A stretch of DNA of 5,107 nt from a virus (Duplodnaviria; Heunggongvirae; Uroviricota; Caudoviricetes), in IMG/VR virus record IMGVR_UViG_3300000301_000108, one strand, 5' to 3'. Positions 1 to 5,107 of this stretch are shown here, piece by piece (the stretch's first letter is position 1; each line of letters begins with the position of its first letter). Under the pieces are notes generated by a model. That model had not been told where the DNA came from. It did not search any database and was given only the letters and a program-made list of their open reading frames with translations. Made by a program: the position numbers and the translations under genes.

Positions 1-109
1 AAATCGGTGGAGCTGCATGACAAAGTCATCGGGCATTATCTGAACATAAAACACCATCAATAAGTTGGAGTCATTACCGAAAATACTCAAATGCCCTCCT
101 CATTGGACG

Positions 110-141
110 AAAAAAATGCTGGTGGGAGCACTCCACCAGCA
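110..141 (-). terminator. Rho-independent terminator closing the minus-strand gene array
   Basis: Perfect 9-bp inverted repeat TGCTGGTGG (117-125) / CCACCAGCA (133-141) with a 7-nt loop. On the minus-strand transcript the hairpin is followed directly by a run of 7 U (plus-strand A-run 110-116). It sits about 22 nt downstream of the TGA stop at 163-165. Confidence 0.65.
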
Positions 142-162
142 TTAAAAGTGACACTGTAACTA

Positions 163-1396
163 TCAGCGAACGTAAATAGTGCCGCCGTTCTCTTTTTCCC
201 ATGCATCGCTACGTGCATAGCAAACATCGAGAAGTCTTCTTGCCGCAGTTTCCTCTAAACCCAATTCGACAACCAACTGCTCATGACGGCGGGTAACCAC
301 ATCAAACAGGGTATGCAGCCCTTTAGTTGCCAGATCATCAATGAATTCCGGTTCGAACGGCAGCTCTGCATCTGCCAACATAACCTCTTGCGCCCACTCA
401 ACTCGACGGACCAATTCCGGGCGGCGGCTTTCCATCTCTTTACAGATCAATTCATGGAAGAACTCTACCCAACCTTCCGGCTGAAACTCGCGGAAAATTG
501 CCAACGGCTGGAAGTTTGGCATCAACCATTCGTTGATTCGGATATCAATGGCATAGCCCATGTCGCAGCAGAACTGATAAGCAAAGTCCCGCTTAGAAAC
601 GATATAAGGACGCTCGTTATTGAACTCTTTAGGCGATGAGATCCCATAAGCCAGGAGGCGCGGGAAGAAGGAGATTTGCCCTAACGTCGGATGAAGTTTG
701 CTTGCAGGGAAACGGCGCTNNNNNNNNNNNNNNNNNNNNNNNNNNNNNNNNNNNNNNNNNNNNNNNNNNNNNNNNNNNNNNNNNNNNNNNNNNNNNNNNN
801 NNNNNNNNNNNNNNNTTTCCTTCTTGAGCGTCGCAAATTTGGCATTCTCATTAACCAGCGCGGTAACCTCTGCTTTTTTATTAGCAAATGCCACGCGCGC
901 CTCGCTTGCATCTTTAATAGTTTTTTTGAGCTGTTGGTTAAGGTCGGCGACCTGCTTACGCAGTTCCTGTCGCTCGCTTTTAGCTTTGTTATAGCGTTTC
1001 TCAAGGTTAAAAGGATCAAGTTTCATGATCTCTTTATATTGAGATTTTAGCGTTGAAATCTGTAAGTTCCGCAGTTCAACCATCGCGGTCATTTCATTGA
1101 GTTTTGTTTCCAGCTCAATGCTTATACGTTCGGCATTATCAGCACGCTGGTTGGCGTCATGCGTCGCATCGTCGATCGCGTCCTGTTGCTGGCGTTTCAA
1201 ATGTTCAATTTGCAGCTGAAGCTCTTCAATTTCTTTACCCTTCAGACCGAGATCCAACTGCATATTTTCAGCTGCATCTACCAGGGAGTTATGGCTATCA
1301 GCTTCTGCGTTATAAACATCAATAAGCTGTGCGTGAAGCATCTCCGCTGACTGAACCGCATTATCAAAAAAACGTGCTGTGAGGTCATCACAACTA
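163..1396 (-). CDS. Large hypothetical protein: N-terminal coiled-coil region plus C-terminal globular domain of unknown function; 5' end hidden in masked run 1397-1486
   Basis: Long minus-strand ORF with stop TGA at 163-165. The frame is open on both sides of the in-gene N-run 720-815 (96 nt, frame-preserving) and stays open from 1341 up into the N-run 1397-1486. The N-terminal half is rich in E/K/Q/L with heptad-like periodicity (e.g. EIEELQLQIEHLKRQQQ). The C-terminal ~200 aa are aromatic/Cys-containing and globular-looking. No family recognised by eye. Confidence 0.8.
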
Positions 1397-1486
1397 NNNN
1401 NNNNNNNNNNNNNNNNNNNNNNNNNNNNNNNNNNNNNNNNNNNNNNNNNNNNNNNNNNNNNNNNNNNNNNNNNNNNNNNNNNNNNN

Positions 1487-1586
1487 GCGCGGCCCGGATG
1501 TTCTGGATAATGGCCGGGATACCGGCATTCAGGACATCAGGGATAGATACATTTTCGATTGATTGGTTTTGTGCTGAAGTGCTCAT
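1487..1586 (-). CDS. Small hypothetical protein; only the N-terminal 33 codons are visible (MSTSAQNQSIENVSIPDVLNAGIPAIIQNIRAA), 3' end hidden in N-run
   Basis: ATG at 1584-1586 lies 1 nt after the TGA stop of the upstream 72-aa ORF (TGAAATG arrangement), with a weak GGAA Shine-Dalgarno. Its frame differs from the large downstream ORF, so it must end inside the masked run 1397-1486 unless there is a frameshift. Confidence 0.4.
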
Positions 1587-1587
1587 T

Positions 1588-1806
1588 TCAAAGTTCCGTA
1601 TTAGCTTGTGCTTCGGTCATTTTTCCTAAGTATGAAGGTGGAAGGACTACGCAATTTGTATCCAGTCCCTCACCTATGGCAGCCTGTAAAATTCTGGCTA
1701 AGGTGAGTCTCTTGTTGCGATACCTGGTGATGACATGCCTGATACCGCCGGTCGGCGTAACAAAGGCGATCAGCCAGTAGTGATATTTCCGTCGGAATGG
1801 CCACAT
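1588..1806 (-). CDS. Hypothetical 72-aa protein
   Basis: ATG at 1804-1806 preceded by AAGGTG (Shine-Dalgarno-like) 4 nt upstream on the minus strand. Stop TGA at 1588-1590 abuts the next start. No recognisable domain by eye. Confidence 0.5.
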   Translation of the reverse strand: MWPFRRKYHYWLIAFVTPTGGIRHVITRYRNKRLTLARILQAAIGEGLDTNCVVLPPSYLGKMTEAQANTEL

Positions 1807-1820
1807 AGTGCACCTTGTGG

Positions 1821-1886
1821 ATTGCTCTAATAAAAAACATGATGAGTGTACATCACGTTTTAAAAATAATGAATTATTAGAGCAAT
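1821..1886. promoter_or_regulatory. Nested inverted repeat / stem-loop inside the 97-bp intergenic gap (1807-1903)
   Basis: Outer perfect 13-bp inverted repeat ATTGCTCTAATAA (1821-1833) / TTATTAGAGCAAT (1874-1886). Inner imperfect 11-bp repeat AAAACATGATG (1834-1844) / CATCACGTTTT (1851-1861) with a 6-nt loop. On the minus-strand transcript the inner hairpin is followed by a U-rich tract (UUUUUUAUU). Confidence 0.5.
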
Positions 1887-1903
1887 ATTATTCTGATTCT
1901 CGC

Positions 1904-2590
1904 TCAAAAAAATGAGCTGATAAGGGGAAGCCAATCCTCTGACACTTCGCGAGGTCGCGGTTTGCCGTGGAAAAAGATTATTCGGCAGTCTTTTGGTAAT
2001 GCCCCATTCCCCCTGGAGTAACGCGCGCTCGCATATTTCGAACCAGGTTCCACAACATCGGCCTTGTAACTTACAAACCATCCCGGATACAGATCCTGAA
2101 ATGCTGGTGTATCATCACCCATAACCTTCCGCAAAAACCCCTGATCACCCCAGCATTCAGTAGTAACACAACGAGCAATCCAACCTTCCGGATCTTGCCA
2201 GAATGCACTCCAGATATGCGCTTTTACACTATTTGGTATCCACAGGGCACCGCTGCCACGATATTGTGGATGGTAAAAATCCCTAAGCATGGTGAAGCTG
2301 GTTGGTGGATTCTCTAGGATTGGGCGTATATCACCGGCAATAACCGTGTCCAAATCCAGATAGAACAGATCATCGGTTATATCCGGTCGGAACAACTCGA
2401 TTTTCGCCCACCAGCCACGGCACTTTTGCCACTGGTTGATCAATGGGACAACTTTGACGCCAGGTACATGTAAACGCTTCAGGTCTGTCAGGCAAATAAT
2501 TTCATAGCCTTTTGGCAGTTGATTAACCAGCCACTGCACATCGGAAGCGTTATAGTCACCACCAGAGCGAAGAACTAAAGCAATCTTCAT
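1904..2590 (-). CDS. GT-A fold glycosyltransferase, GT8-like (retaining-type signature), about 229 aa
   Basis: ORF from ATG 2588-2590 to stop TGA 1904-1906. Motifs: N-terminal MKIALVLRSGGDYNA (compare GT8 starts such as LgtC MDIVFAADDNYA), DxD-type ...WWAKIELFRPDITDDLFYLDLDTVI (compare LgtC YARLKLGEYIADCDKVLYLDIDVLV), and C-terminal IFFHGKPRP (compare the GT8 H-x-G-x-x-KPW motif). The start could lie further upstream inside N-run 2594-2787. Confidence 0.7.
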   Translation of the reverse strand: MKIALVLRSGGDYNASDVQWLVNQLPKGYEIICLTDLKRLHVPGVKVVPLINQWQKCRGWWAKIELFRPDITDDLFYLDLDTVIAGDIRPILENPPTSFTMLRDFYHPQYRGSGALWIPNSVKAHIWSAFWQDPEGWIARCVTTECWGDQGFLRKVMGDDTPAFQDLYPGWFVSYKADVVEPGSKYASARYSRGNGALPKDCRIIFFHGKPRPREVSEDWLPLISSFF

Positions 2591-2666
2591 GCTNNNNNNN
2601 NNNNNNNNNNNNNNNNNNNNNNNNNNNNNNNNNNNNNNNNNNNNNNNNNNNNNNNNNNNNNNNNNN

Positions 2667-3356
2667 NNNNNNNNNNNNNNNNNNNNNNNNNNNNNNNNNN
2701 NNNNNNNNNNNNNNNNNNNNNNNNNNNNNNNNNNNNNNNNNNNNNNNNNNNNNNNNNNNNNNNNNNNNNNNNNNNNNNNNNNNNNNNAAACGATCTGCGC
2801 CAGAAATTTCGCCACCAATATCATCCATCGAATCACTGATACGCTCGCGCGCCCAGACAACGTTGAAAAGCGGCACCTCCTTACCGAATTGATATTCATT
2901 ATCCGGATAGTCGGCATGGGCTATAACGATAGTTTCTTGCCCGGTGTTCAACTCAATGATATAGGGCAGTCGTCTTACCAACTCCACCAGCGCCCTGGCT
3001 AATATTTCCTGATCAGCGTCCAGCATGAAGAACCATTGACCGCCATTCATTAGCCAGTTATTCACGTTGCCATCTGGACTTAACGCATCAATCATCAGCC
3101 GCTCATGGTTCCCCATCACTGCCCTGAACCAGGGCATCTGCAATAGTTCCAGACATTCGACATTTTCAGTACCGCGATCGATAAGGTCGCCGACCGATAT
3201 CAGTAAATCCTGCGCCGGGTCAAAATCCACACGATGGAGTTCGGACATCAGTCTGGTGTAGCAACCATGCAGATCACCAACAACCCAGACATTCCTGTAT
3301 TTGGTACCGTCGATACGGTGATAAATTGTGGGTGCCATCATGTATTCTTCAGCCAT
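2667..3356 (-). CDS. Ser/Thr protein phosphatase, phage lambda PPase (ORF221/NinI)-like metallophosphoesterase
   Basis: Translation aligns along its visible length to lambda phosphatase: [78 protein letters not shown]. It contains the PPP-family GDxHG / GDxxDRG / GNHE motifs. The C-terminal ~40 codons are masked, so the 3' end (~2667) is estimated from lambda PPase length. Start may be ATG 3356 or the downstream ATGs at 3341/3338. Confidence 0.9.
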
Positions 3357-3964
3357 TCTTTAAGAGTCATCTGCGGAATACCTCCCATTTTCCCGCATGA
3401 AACAACGTCAATCTGTTCACGCGCAGACTGGAATAACAAAGGCAGGTGACTTAGATTTTTTGGCGTGCCGCCGGAGTGAACGCGTGGTTCTTGTGTAGCG
3501 TCAACGCCCACCAGGGCGACATGTTTGAATCCGATATGGAAAGCCAGGTTCAGAGCACCATATGCACTATTGCCGCTGGCAATTTCATTCTCATCTTCGC
3601 AAAGGCCGAAATGTGCGGACCAGCGCCACGCCCACCACTCGGGAGAATTCGTATTTTTTGGCTCCGTGCCGCGCTCAGCCACACGACGGAAGCACAGAAC
3701 GCCATCTCTGACTTCACGTTCTTTAACATCGGGTAGTGCCATGCAATAACAAACACCACGGCGACGGCGGCCACGACCAACGCGCCGCATATTGTCTGGC
3801 GATGGATCAAGGGTGAAAAAATAAGAAGCGCGGTTAAGCCAGTCGATGGCCCCATTGACCGCTATAATCGGCACTCCGCGCGGCGCAACAAAGTTTGCGG
3901 CGCTTGGGCCACTGCCGACGATAATAACGCGATCACTGCCTCTAAATTTATTCTTGGGAAACAT
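3338..3964 (-). CDS. Sialyltransferase-like / DUF115 (MptE/Maf-like) fold protein, paralog A (208 aa)
   Basis: ATG 3962-3964, stop TGA 3338-3340. N-terminal motif [10 protein letters not shown]...[11 protein letters not shown] resembles the h-h-h-G-N/S-GPSL ... N motif of Cst-II-type sialyltransferases and DUF115/Maf proteins. Internal [26 protein letters not shown] matches the second conserved block of that fold. The stop overlaps the phosphatase start (TGATG). Confidence 0.75.
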
Positions 3965-4482
3965 TGAATTGCACTGCTCCTACTTGCATTCAAAATATGT
4001 AAATCTGCGTGTTTTTTGCGGGTATCCAGGAACTGCTGTTGCCATTTTGAAATAGACACCTGCGTTGGATTCCGTAGGGCTTGAGGGTGCGCGCCATGCC
4101 AATGAAGGCCGTTTTGCAGAGAACAGTCATAGCCGACTAATACCACTACTTCAGCCCCTGATTCAGCAGCCAGACTGATAGCCTGCGCGCCGCTATTTAC
4201 CCCTTCCGCCGGTCCACAATATCGCCTGTACTCCAACGAAAATGATTTCGCCGCCGCCAGGTTGGCTGTCACTTTGCGGAATCTCCCTCCCGGTATGGTG
4301 GATCCGTATTGCTTCCACCATGACAAATCACCGGCGTATAAGGCATAAATGTCATCGAACATCTGCCAGGAATTGTTAACCGCGATGATTGAACAGCCAG
4401 TTTTTTCTATAGCAGCACAGTCCTCACGAGTGAGTGACGGACCGCTACCGACACAAAAAACAGTCCTAGTCGCCCTGGGTGG
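3862..4482 (-). CDS. Sialyltransferase-like / DUF115 (MptE/Maf-like) fold protein, paralog B; 5' end hidden in N-run 4483-4598
   Basis: The frame is open from stop 3862-3864 upward past the annotated ATG at 4362 into the N-run. The upstream extension reads ...TRTVFCVGSGPSLTREDCAAIEKTGCSIIAVNNSWQMFDD, the same GSGPS...IIAVN signature as paralog A, so the true start is upstream of 4362 (probably just inside the N-run). Second block SGAQAISLAAESGAEVVVLVGYD is present. Confidence 0.7.
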   Translation of the reverse strand, partial: PPRATRTVFCVGSGPSLTREDCAAIEKTGCSIIAVNNSWQMFDDIYALYAGDLSWWKQYGSTIPGGRFRKVTANLAAAKSFSLEYRRYCGPAEGVNSGAQAISLAAESGAEVVVLVGYDCSLQNGLHWHGAHPQALRNPTQVSISKWQQQFLDTRKKHADLHILNASRSSAIQCFPRINLEAVIALLSSAVAQAPQTLLRRAECRL

Positions 4483-4598
4483 NNNNNNNNNNNNNNNNNN
4501 NNNNNNNNNNNNNNNNNNNNNNNNNNNNNNNNNNNNNNNNNNNNNNNNNNNNNNNNNNNNNNNNNNNNNNNNNNNNNNNNNNNNNNNNNNNNNNNNNN

Positions 4599-4808: not shown

Positions 4809-4903
4809 NNNNNNNNNNNNNNNNNNNNNNNNNNNNNNNNNNNNNNNNNNNNNNNNNNNNNNNNNNNNNNNNNNNNNNNNNNNNNNNNNNNNNNNNNNNN
4901 NNN

Positions 4904-5107
4904 AAGGCTTATGTATTCCAGGATGGCGGTTATCGCTTGTTCTGCACCATACGCAAGAACGACGTAGTAACCTTCCTCTCTAAGCCTGCGCATCCAGGCG
5001 ATCTGCTCTTTCGTCGGGGCTTTACCATTTGGTTCTTTAAGCTCAATTCGCATGCGGTGATGCTGCCAACTTACTGATTTAGTGTATGATGGTGTTTTTG
5101 AGGTGCT
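4904..5107 (-). CDS. VRR-NUC domain (PD-(D/E)xK-type) nuclease-like protein, partial: 5' end beyond window, 3' end inside N-run 4809-4903
   Basis: Minus-strand frame is open from the window edge. Visible sequence ...RMRIELKEPNGKAPTKEQIAWMRRLREEGYYVVLAYGAEQAITAILEYISL matches the C-terminal half of VRR-NUC domains (E-x-K catalytic motif, then a helix). Such genes are typical of lambdoid early regions. Confidence 0.6.

Follow-up and report, generated by a model that had tools for sequence, protein, structure and literature searches.

A probable P1-type pmgR-pmgS transcription unit between two IS1 copies, and a predicted (HhH)2 domain at the end of PmgS

Positions 163-1806 of the window, as the whole 5,107-nucleotide stretch of viral DNA analysed here (IMGVR_UViG_3300000301_000108) is called, almost certainly correspond, judging by their sequence, to the known pmgR-pmgS gene pair of bacteriophage P1. 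The explanation that best covers the data overall, and which is considered likely together with the mechanism proposed below, is that this pair forms a transcription unit of a P1-type phage-plasmid (Table 1). The region shows 98.4% nucleotide identity to phage P1, and the 19 P1/P7-type phage records compared are 98.1-98.5% identical over 2.4 kb with conserved gene order. The order ppp-pmgQ-pmgR-pmgS-pap is common to the window and P1, and on alignment the gene table of the P1 record (AF234172) agrees with the window feature by feature, with pmgR, pmgS, PpmgR and OpmgRa/b annotated at the aligned positions. Operators, promoter and terminator are shared with the P1 pair (AAQ14062/AAQ14063; Op86a/b), which the P7 record names shtA-shtB; PmgQ is 5 residues shorter in the window than in P1 because of an indel at the 3' end of pmgQ. 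Both pmgR and pmgS are already catalogued genes rather than new ones, and as a genome-scan find they are ordinary, belonging to one of the best-known phages. A published list of 21 core genes that are extremely conserved in P1-like phage-plasmids includes the pair (PMC9603915).

Table 1. Features of the pmgR-pmgS region and of the borders of the P1 fragment in the window.
Feature	Position	Strand	Remarks
IS1 copy, 3' end	1..78	+	right inverted repeat ends at 78; left border of P1 fragment
pap remnant (3'-phosphatase/5'-kinase-like gene)	79..90	-	TTG start 90-88 + 3 codons, then IS1
Intrinsic-terminator-like hairpin	105..143	-	stem-loop 143-115; T-run + tail 116-105
pmgS	163..1586	-	one gene, truly 1263 nt / 420 aa; PHROG 1660
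PmgS (HhH)2 domain, residues ~359-412 (predicted)	190..351	-	RAD51/RadA N-terminal, RNAP alpha-CTD type
PmgS alpha/beta domain, residues 237-350 (predicted)	376..717	-	3-stranded sheet + 3 helices; compact
PmgS coiled-coil region, residues ~42-232 (predicted)	816..1383	-	AF2; part hidden by 720-815 mask
pmgR	1588..1806	-	72 aa; phrog_3177, E = 4e-47
C1 operator OpmgRb (former Op86b)	1821..1837	+	consensus match; maps onto P1 AF234172 feature
Predicted sigma-70 promoter PpmgR	1857..1885	-	-35 TTGCTC 1885-1880; -10 TAAAAC 1862-1857
C1 operator OpmgRa (former Op86a)	1870..1886	-	overlaps -35; P1 record: controls pmgR and pmgS
Second IS1 copy, 5' end	5056..5107	+	52/52 nt identical to IS1 left ends

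An initial annotation, made from the letters of the window, had compared the genes with those of lambdoid prophages; the backbone is that of a P1-type (Punavirus) phage-plasmid and not of a lambdoid prophage. The annotation had recognised no standard lambdoid gene for late regulation or lysis, and in this it was right: no such module (Q-type antiterminator, holin, endolysin or spanin) was found in the window, and ppp, a NinI-type phosphatase, is its sole lambda-like gene.

Three co-oriented ORFs had also been described in the segment. Their common orientation is confirmed, all of 163-1806 being read from the minus strand, but the number of genes is two. The supposed small ORF starting MSTSAQ is not a separate gene and constitutes the N-terminus of the large protein, PmgS; the latter, predicted to have at least ~410 aa, is encoded by a single 420-aa ORF in an unmasked plasmid copy. 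For a check proposed at the time, whether the frames around 1397-1486 are separate genes, that plasmid, which is 99.6-100% identical and carries the ORF uninterrupted, points to a single gene. The 90 N at 1397-1486 stand for 10 real bases and the 96 N at 720-815 for 15, giving 25 masked bases in all. The reading frame seems to change because the difference between 90 and 10, 80, is not a multiple of 3, and the frame change in pmgS is an artefact of the over-long N-run; the two over-long runs also explain why the gene spans 1424 nt in the window. More generally, spurious frameshifts and spurious 'small ORFs' can arise wherever an N-mask differs in length from the bases it hides. Apart from the masked bases, whose reading the plasmid copy predicts, the pmgS frame stays open through each of its 408 visible codons, and 406 of the 408 visible residues are identical to those of P1. 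The two substitutions are S148L and L279R, the second at an alignment column without variation in the P1 lineage, and given L279R and the truncated phage, this copy of PmgS may have lost its function.

The P1 portion of the window is a 4,977-bp fragment (pmgM' to pap') enclosed by two directly oriented IS1 copies. The left border element matches the ends of annotated IS1 copies over 77-78 nt at 97-100%, and in a near-identical unmasked plasmid PGAP annotates this junction with an IS1 transposase. Homology to P1 starts at window position 79 (L003 4501, with the pap CDS start at L003 4512). The second IS1, in the same orientation as the first, forms the right border and truncates pmgM (VRR-NUC). 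Unlike in P1, both pmgM and pap are truncated by IS1, and pmgR-pmgS look terminal because the left copy cut pap, the next gene, after 4 codons. What had been taken for a 3'-terminal module thus owes its position to IS1, and IS truncation can in this way give an internal gene pair the appearance of terminal cargo.

The left stretch is carried by 655 of 5,426 complete E. coli genomes (~12%), counted at >=80% coverage of window 1-2000, which runs from the IS1 end through pmgS and pmgR into the last part of pmgQ. The right-hand IS1/pmgM junction gave no match in species-representative genomes and no contiguous match in complete E. coli genomes. Near-identical copies reside in 77-102 kb plasmids, adjoining resistance-gene and IS26/IS5 mosaics, and in another plasmid the IS1 copies enclose no more than pap, pmgS and, where pmgQ would lie, a partial ORF. 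Such surroundings, together with the like-oriented IS1 ends on both sides, the truncation of both pap and pmgM, and L279R, would fit a pair that is here an inert passenger in a decaying P1 remnant. This alternative is compatible with the best explanation and is regarded as possible but doubtful, given that pmgR is intact and identical to its P1 counterpart, that pmgS is open wherever it is visible, and that the promoter, operators and terminator are all intact in the window. Furthermore, the left-hand junction has many carriers with a length of 77-102 kb (most 88-98 kb), as expected of a whole P1-like plasmid.

It is probable that pmgR and pmgS constitute one transcription unit with PpmgR, the C1 operators and a terminator of its own. 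A scan with the C1 operator consensus found two operators compared with 0.02 expected by chance. The gap upstream of pmgR had been called structured, and it does contain a perfect 13-nt inverted repeat (1821-1833 / 1874-1886), the arms of which are the two C1-operator matches; an RNA element was dismissed for this gap, where the structure is that of the operator pair, and an Rfam scan of the window returned no match. PpmgR was transferred from the P1 annotation by alignment and lies below the reach of a generic consensus scan, being too weak for it, and is for that reason counted as predicted. The strong terminator that had been noted is also present, as a strong hairpin with a run of T's directly after the stop of the large ORF. 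It separates the stop of pmgS from the start of pap, has an 11-bp stem with 6 G-C pairs and a 7-nt loop, folds with an MFE of -27.7 kcal/mol (z = -2.46) and is conserved in P1. Given the C1 operators, repression of the operon is expected in the lysogen. Once C1 repression is lifted, the host sigma-70 RNA polymerase would start at PpmgR and transcribe both genes, with translation of pmgS coupled to that of pmgR, and most transcription would end at the hairpin. The P1 record also places a late promoter, LPpmgL, upstream, and read-through from it might express the pair late. A plasmid-maintenance (KfrA-like) role for PmgS was thought unlikely by inference, since the operon would be C1-repressed in the plasmid state.

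The 72-aa ORF noted initially is pmgR, and its product is complete and identical to P1 PmgR in 72 of 72 residues. Its TGA stop lies one base from the ATG of pmgS (TGAAATG), and this spacing makes translational coupling of the two genes likely. In distant P1-like contigs, PmgR homologues of no more than 36% identity are syntenic, lying upstream of PmgS homologues. PmgR (8 kDa) is required for infectious virions; in its absence tails and incomplete heads pile up unjoined, and the deletion is complemented in trans (PMC9024508).

PmgS matches PHROG 1660 ('PmgS-like head morphogenesis') over its full length (residues 1-420, E = 3e-195). The coiled-coil N-terminal part and globular C-terminal part expected of the large protein were both recovered. 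In the AF2 model the coiled coil consists of two long helices, 42-160 and 166-232, joined by a conserved K-L-D-P break, of which P165 hardly varies within the family; the P1 record places a coiled coil at aa 75-220. A search of the C-terminal part by fold had been suggested, and it succeeded for the tail, which was recognised as (HhH)2, and not for the preceding alpha/beta part, which has no structural match and no recognisable relative. The profile of this middle domain found only designed helical repeats among PDB sequences (E >= 0.02), and on the predicted model it is a novel domain. It is marked by the motifs NEWLxP and HPxLxxRxxWA, and its conserved residues are hydrophobic, Pro or Arg and form no catalytic-looking motif. 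By analogy with RmuC-like proteins, in which a nuclease accompanies a coiled coil, a PD-(D/E)xK nuclease was tried for the middle domain and rejected, as the family conserves neither an acidic nor a lysine motif and no fold match was found.

New here, along with the unmatched alpha/beta domain and the early settings of the homologues outside P1, is that PmgS ends, according to its structural model, in a (HhH)2 domain of the RAD51 N-terminal type. The modelled fold superposes on solved (HhH)2 domains, the family profile finds the RAD51 NTD at E = 8e-8, and the full-family profile searched against PDB sequences gives only HhH and coiled-coil matches. Among 55 diverse relatives, Pfam HHH_5 was detected in 17 and RNA_pol_A_CTD in 13, whereas the P1-type PmgS alone gave no match to Pfam HhH at E <= 1, and the G-I-G signature of the relatives is missing from its second hairpin. 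When PmgS, PmgR and PmgQ were scanned with Pfam, NCBIfam and PADLOC, no domain rose above threshold, the sub-threshold matches of PmgS being coiled-coil noise (TPR, LPP, SMC, LmuB, JetC). Over the searches as a whole, the helical arms drew only weak matches of the coiled-coil type, to SMC, LmuB and myosin. Compared with RAD51/RadA and the RAD51 paralogues (PDB 1b22, 8gj9, 8faz; Pfam HHH_5), in which the (HhH)2 domain is N-terminal, that of PmgS is C-terminal, comes after the coiled coil and the alpha/beta domain, which is unrelated, lacks an accompanying RecA-type ATPase core and, in the P1 protein, has a degenerate glycine motif in the second hairpin. The related domains of RNAP alpha-CTD and the NusA acidic repeats are parts of the transcription machinery that act partly through protein contacts.

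The family comprises 118 clusters of the same architecture, and all 55 diverse relatives match PHROG 1660. In the P1-like lineages sampled, pmgR is kept directly upstream of the PmgS homologue. Non-P1 temperate phages carry the homologue without pmgR, in early, non-structural operons. One such locus reads ExoVIII - RecT - unknown - PmgS homologue - Dam - RdgC ... integrase, a second RecT - Gam-like - PmgS homologue, and two others DNA methyltransferase - PmgS homologue; in another phage the homologue is the first gene after a CI-like repressor, towards the integrase. Distant homologues are thus embedded in early-left-operon modules with RecE/RecT, Gam-like, RdgC and Dam proteins, whereas the P1 gene has pmgR as its partner and follows ppp and pmgQ. 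This context is guilt by association from ~10 loci, several of them from one Aeromonas prophage lineage. Single-protein scans for related loci found none for one query, and for the others one informative locus and 35 loci of a single Aeromonas lineage. A literature search for 'PmgS-like' matched only in an unrelated context.

Given its (HhH)2 tail and the early recombination and methylase neighbours in non-P1 phages, an early accessory protein associated with DNA is a likelier identity for PmgS than a structural protein, and a DNA-linked early role as such is plausible but tentative. The protein would be elongated and coiled-coil, probably oligomeric, with the alpha/beta domain and the RAD51-N-terminal-like (HhH)2 domain at its C-terminal end. 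Early in lytic growth it would most likely bind duplex DNA non-specifically or dock onto a partner in DNA transactions. Against DNA binding it counts that some (HhH)2 domains, among them alpha-CTD and the AR domains of NusA, are used for contacts between proteins as well. The role envisaged is accessory to DNA recombination, end handling or protection, and not that of a virion part. A more specific proposal, which we consider rather unlikely, is that PHROG 1660 is mislabelled and is a widespread early repressor-controlled coiled-coil family, with a new alpha/beta domain and a RAD51-type (HhH)2 tail, that travels with RecET/Gam/methylase modules in temperate phages and acts on DNA ends or recombination intermediates, or blocks a host nuclease or SMC-type defence; if this were true, PmgS could help the incoming linear P1 genome to survive or circularise. 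Being dispensable, early, putatively DNA-binding and conserved in P1-like plasmids, PmgS may reasonably be considered for a part in the still poorly understood first stages of P1 infection (end protection, cyclisation, conflict with host nucleases).

A morphogenetic PmgS, which as a coiled-coil scaffold or chaperone would assist PmgR in completing heads or in the behaviour of the sheath and would be redundant in the laboratory, appears improbable. Existing labels favour it ('putative morphogenetic function' in P1, 'ShtB sheath contraction' and 'ShtA' in P7, and the name of PHROG 1660), although the pmg names were assigned as 'putative' without assay. It would also suit the shared and probably coupled operon with pmgR, deletion of which leaves heads and tails unjoined, the conservation of the pair in all P1-like lineages sampled, and the long coiled coils often found in scaffolds and tape-measure chaperones. 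However, the pmgS deletion plaques normally, being one of 24 knockouts without a change in plaquing or antirestriction, and PmgS is absent from the main text of that study, including its table of the virion proteome (PMC9024508). A CRISPRi screen likewise scored pmgS as non-essential (PMC10695390). Homologues outside the P1 lineage, lacking pmgR, lie among recombination, methylase and repressor-proximal early genes and not in structural clusters, the recognisable domain is of the nucleic-acid type predicted above, and a Pfam Phage_scaffold match is noise (E = 0.58). The 'head morphogenesis' label of the family has no experimental support, and domain make-up, neighbourhoods outside P1 and knockout phenotype all run against it. 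The labels of PHROG 1660 and P7 ShtB, and the co-transcription of pmgS with a gene of morphogenetic phenotype, speak for their part against the DNA-linked reading.

The initial annotation had speculated that accessory cargo, with a defence, exclusion or anti-defence function, sits at the end of this operon. The pair is instead core-conserved (PMC9603915) and terminal only through IS1; no defence-system model matches either protein, and pmgR is essential for infectious virions. The expected repression in the lysogen would moreover be the wrong expression state for a prophage-encoded defence. A narrower proposal, of low probability, makes PmgS accessory cargo for conflicts: it would counter defences or nucleases early on (RecBCD or SMC-like systems, for instance), or else be an effector of exclusion or defence. 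The protein is dispensable in the laboratory host, its predicted promoter is early and repressor-controlled, the neighbours in one P1-like relative include a weak Tad2-like match and a Sequestin-family protein, and in lambdoid relatives the homologue adjoins a Gam-like end-protection gene in the operon usual for anti-host genes. In contrast, no defence or anti-defence model is significant for PmgS, which has no Pfam or NCBIfam effector domain and no catalytic-looking motif in its middle domain. A role in the lysogen is at odds with C1 repression, P1-like plasmids keep the gene as part of their conserved core and not as a variable one, and antirestriction activity was unchanged in the knockout set that includes pmgS (PMC9024508).

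The search with PADLOC models that had been recommended gave no match for PmgR or PmgQ, the neighbours being the P1 genes ppp, pmgQ and pap. For PmgS it gave weak matches confined to the coiled coil, which faintly resembles LmuB and JetC, the best being LmuB (E = 2e-4; next 8e-4); TIGR02169 matched the same arm region at E = 4e-4. Coiled-coil ATPases of the SMC/Rad50/LmuB kind do have long helical arms with a conserved break, as in PmgS, but the latter is without a Walker A/B head, hinge or zinc hook, and no AAA or SMC_N Pfam domain was found in it. An SMC/Rad50-like identity was rejected, as the matches are limited to the arm region and the ATPase head is absent. The SMC-type matches cover only residues ~53-235 and reach 18 bits against a cut-off of 729, and the arms of PmgS are flanked by a short helix at one end and by the alpha/beta and HhH domains at the other.

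By every available sequence test, the finding at 163-1806 belongs to the pmgR-pmgS operon of phage P1 and is therefore already known. A 2.4-kb query spanning it matched 19 P1/P7-type records in the phage collection (98.1-98.5% identity) and no other record there, and window 1-2000 is present to at least 80% in 655 of the 5,426 complete E. coli genomes, usually on a plasmid of about 80-100 kb. In P1 (AF234172), the gene order in the window's direction of transcription is pmgM, pmgN, pmgO, pmgP, ppp, pmgQ, a promoter with two C1 operators, pmgR, pmgS and pap; pmgR and pmgS are named shtA and shtB in P7. The sizeable ORFs of the window all lie on the minus strand, in agreement with the co-orientation reported in the initial annotation. 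Judged by its sequence, the 4,977 bp between the IS1 ends is a piece of a P1-type phage-plasmid.

Features of the window and true lengths of its masked runs
Feature	Position	Strand	Detail
IS1 3' end	1-78		same orientation as second copy
pap remnant	79-90		TTG and three codons, then IS1
Terminator hairpin	143-105	-	11-bp stem, 6 G-C pairs, then T-run
N-run	720-815		96 N for 15 real bases
N-run	1397-1486		90 N for 10 real bases
pmgR	1588-1806	-	72 aa, 72/72 identical to P1
C1 operator OpmgRb (Op86b)	1821-1837		consensus match; named in P1 record
C1 operator OpmgRa (Op86a)	1870-1886		consensus match; governs pmgR and pmgS expression according to P1 record
Predicted sigma-70 promoter PpmgR	1885-1857		TTGCTC-17-TAAAAC
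N-run	2594-2787		194 N for 117 real bases
pmgP	3338-3964	-	208 aa
pmgO	3862-4482+	-	
N-run	4483-4598		116 N for 40 real bases
N-run	4809-4903		95 N for 15 real bases
IS1 5' end (second copy)	5056-5107		same orientation as first copy

The two IS1 ends stand in direct orientation around a pmgM'-to-pap' fragment, an arrangement resembling a composite transposon or a deletion scar; the N-terminal part of pmgM (VRR-NUC) and all but four codons of pap are gone. The right-hand IS1/pmgM junction was absent from the genome collections searched (species-representative genomes, and complete E. coli genomes for a contiguous match). Plasmid p1_KH_005 (5366-9267) retains, between IS1 copies, no more than pap, pmgS and a partial ORF where pmgQ would lie, and small IS1-bounded P1 remnants with pmgS therefore arise repeatedly and independently.

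The true lengths of the masked runs were obtained by aligning the unmasked segments of the window to its near-identical unmasked twin, plasmid pTetA_020022 (99.6-100% identity). Since the N-runs are not length-true, false frameshifts and inflated lengths are possible in any ORF that crosses them. The first run carries 81 excess bases and keeps the frame; the second carries 80 and breaks it, which explains the two frames previously flagged around 1397-1486. Of the three ORFs counted initially in 163-1806, the small one (start MSTSAQ) and that of the large coiled-coil protein thus form one gene, pmgS. It is a single ORF of 420 continuous codons in both the twin plasmid and P1, and very probably in the window copy, where 25 bases are masked. 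Similarly, ppp is listed at 266 aa in the window against 230 aa in the twin, and the ORF at 1904-2917 (listed as 337 aa) is pmgQ (228 aa) fused to a stretch read out of frame through the 2594-2787 mask.

Read directly, the sequence TGAAATG leaves one base between the stop codon of pmgR and the start codon of pmgS. The intergenic gap upstream of pmgR, described earlier as structured, contains a perfect 13-nt inverted repeat formed by the two C1 operator consensus matches (two seen against 0.02 expected by chance). The adjacent promoter is a prediction, too weak to score in a generic promoter scan, and Rfam returned no match in the window. The strong terminator proposed initially was borne out (fold z = -2.46), but the module is not terminal: in P1 the hairpin lies between pmgS and pap, and the terminal appearance arises only because the IS1 insertion cut pap. 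On loss of repression by C1, sigma-70 polymerase would initiate at PpmgR and transcribe pmgR with the coupled pmgS, mostly halting at the hairpin. Late expression could be added by transcripts that read through from promoters further upstream, LPpmgL (annotated as late in P1) among them.

Pfam, NCBIfam and PADLOC gave nothing above threshold for PmgS, and its weak matches (SMC, LmuB, JetC, TPR, myosin) are confined to residues ~50-235 and thus reflect coiled-coil composition. The protein is not a member of the SMC/Rad50 class, having no ATPase head, nor of any defence family. Close homologues numbered 29 in 5.8 billion proteins, on contigs of 90-98 kb and with identities as low as 53%, besides a single one at 27%. 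When 1.84 billion cluster representatives were searched with a profile, 118 clusters were recovered, mostly of 370-470 aa and aligned end to end. Searched against PDB sequences, the profile of 55 diverse family members matched the human RAD51 N-terminal domain (E = 8e-8), archaeal RadA/Rad51 and the RNA polymerase alpha-CTD (E = 1.6e-6), all at profile positions 333-390. The RAD51 N-terminal domain binds DNA. Pfam detected HHH_5 in 17 and RNA_pol_A_CTD in 13 of the 55 members. P1 PmgS has lost the usual glycine motif of its second hairpin. By structure and family profile, its C-terminus is of the (HhH)2 fold class, although single-sequence Pfam thresholds are not reached. Of the coiled coil plus effector domain envisaged earlier, the coiled coil therefore stands, and in place of the effector there are an unrecognised domain of binding type and an (HhH)2 module.

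An Ala-Ala C-terminal end (…KAA, …EAA, …VAA) occurs in 21 of the 55 members (e.g., P0086 and P0053), far above chance; P1 PmgS ends in …IYVR. By analogy, such ends recall the ssrA-type degrons that ClpXP recognises, which would point to proteins with a short lifetime.

Both pmgR and pmgS were among 29 P1 genes deleted in frame by Gonzales et al. (2022; PMC9024508). Deletion of pmgR gave no infectious virions, with tails and incomplete heads in lysates, and plaque formation was recovered in trans (PMC9024508). Five genes were essential and pmgS was not one of them; this places it among the 24 knockouts without a plaquing defect and with unchanged antirestriction activity, and PmgS is absent from the main text, including the virion proteome table (PMC9024508). 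CRISPRi also scored pmgS as non-essential (Piya et al., 2023; PMC10695390). Both pmgR and pmgS are among the 21 extremely conserved genes of 77 P1-like phage-plasmids, outside the eight variable regions (PMC9603915). A literature search outside the original P1 genome paper found no paper giving PmgS a function.

Gene neighbourhoods were compared at about ten independent loci. In P1-like lineages (on contigs that carry DarB-like giants, Lpa, ParM and pap-like genes), the ORF directly upstream of the PmgS relative always belongs to the PmgR family (phrog_3177/9115; 36% identity at locus L005). No PmgR homologue was found at the loci outside this lineage, so PmgR and PmgS are separable; there the PmgS-like gene sits in operons that are early and non-structural. 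The order in an Aeromonas prophage is ExoVIII-like exonuclease, RecT, phrog_1376, PmgS-like gene, Dam, RdgC and, at a greater distance, integrase. The phrog_1376 protein (L006, 8862-9950; 362 aa), conserved in Aeromonas prophages, may be a functional partner of the PmgS-like protein, replacing PmgR. A lambdoid element carries RecT, a Mu-Gam-like/Sipho_Gp157 protein and the PmgS-like gene, with the Cro/P replication arm opposite. In two elements the gene is directly 3' of a DNA methyltransferase, and in another it comes first after a CI-like repressor, pointing to the integrase. Across the wider family, the neighbours are DNA-transaction and anti-host genes rather than head or tail genes.

New here are the description of PmgS at the level of domains and the case that the label of its family, 'PmgS-like head morphogenesis' (phrog_1660), is probably wrong. 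PmgS would be elongated and probably oligomeric, with an (HhH)2 tail that touches duplex DNA non-sequence-specifically or binds a partner in DNA transactions during early lytic growth. Its domain, the gene neighbourhoods and the negative results on morphogenesis tentatively favour such a DNA-linked early role, and the lost glycine motif of the second hairpin weighs against it. It is possible, if rather doubtful, that PHROG 1660 is an uncharacterised family of early accessory proteins for DNA ends, recombination or anti-nuclease action.

The window copy may itself be an inert passenger, a state that is compatible with the main reading and conceivable, though not likely; IS1 on both sides, the truncation of pap and pmgM, and the change L279R in its PmgS speak for it. 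Residue 279 (window ~589-591) is Arg where P1, the twin plasmid and 11/11 aligned P1-lineage homologues have Leu (KRDFAY vs KLDFAY), the column being invariant across the P1-lineage alignment. Most distant relatives have a hydrophobic residue at this position, which falls on a beta-strand of the middle domain, and L279R may be damaging.

A morphogenetic PmgS, as the labels state, is improbable. It has in its favour the operon shared with pmgR and the database names, of which the phrog_1660 label is inherited from the P1 gene name. The knockout phenotype, a reported virion proteome that does not list PmgS, and the relatives' neighbourhoods argue against it. The defence or anti-defence cargo proposed initially fits a dispensable, early-expressed gene and some neighbours, but is quite unlikely for one that is core-conserved, C1-repressed in the lysogen, without a model match and without effect on antirestriction. 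In an 86-kb P1-like relative (L011/L012), a weak Tad2-like match and a Sequestin-family gene (7081-7584 and 11479-11934) lie on either side of the PmgR/PmgS pair, Tad2 being an anti-Thoeris family, which hints that this region gathers anti-defence genes in some lineages.

Among the other genes, PmgQ (PHROG 'glycosyltransferase') has 228 aa in the window and the twin plasmid compared with 233 aa in P1, a difference that stems from an indel at the extreme 3' end of the gene (window 1888-1906); the protein is otherwise 97% identical to P1, and PGAP marks the twin-plasmid pmgQ as frameshifted. The ~100-nt overlap of pmgP and pmgO in different frames is also present in the P1 annotation (pmgP 80152-80778, pmgO 79592-80254) and is unusually long for two genes without assigned function.
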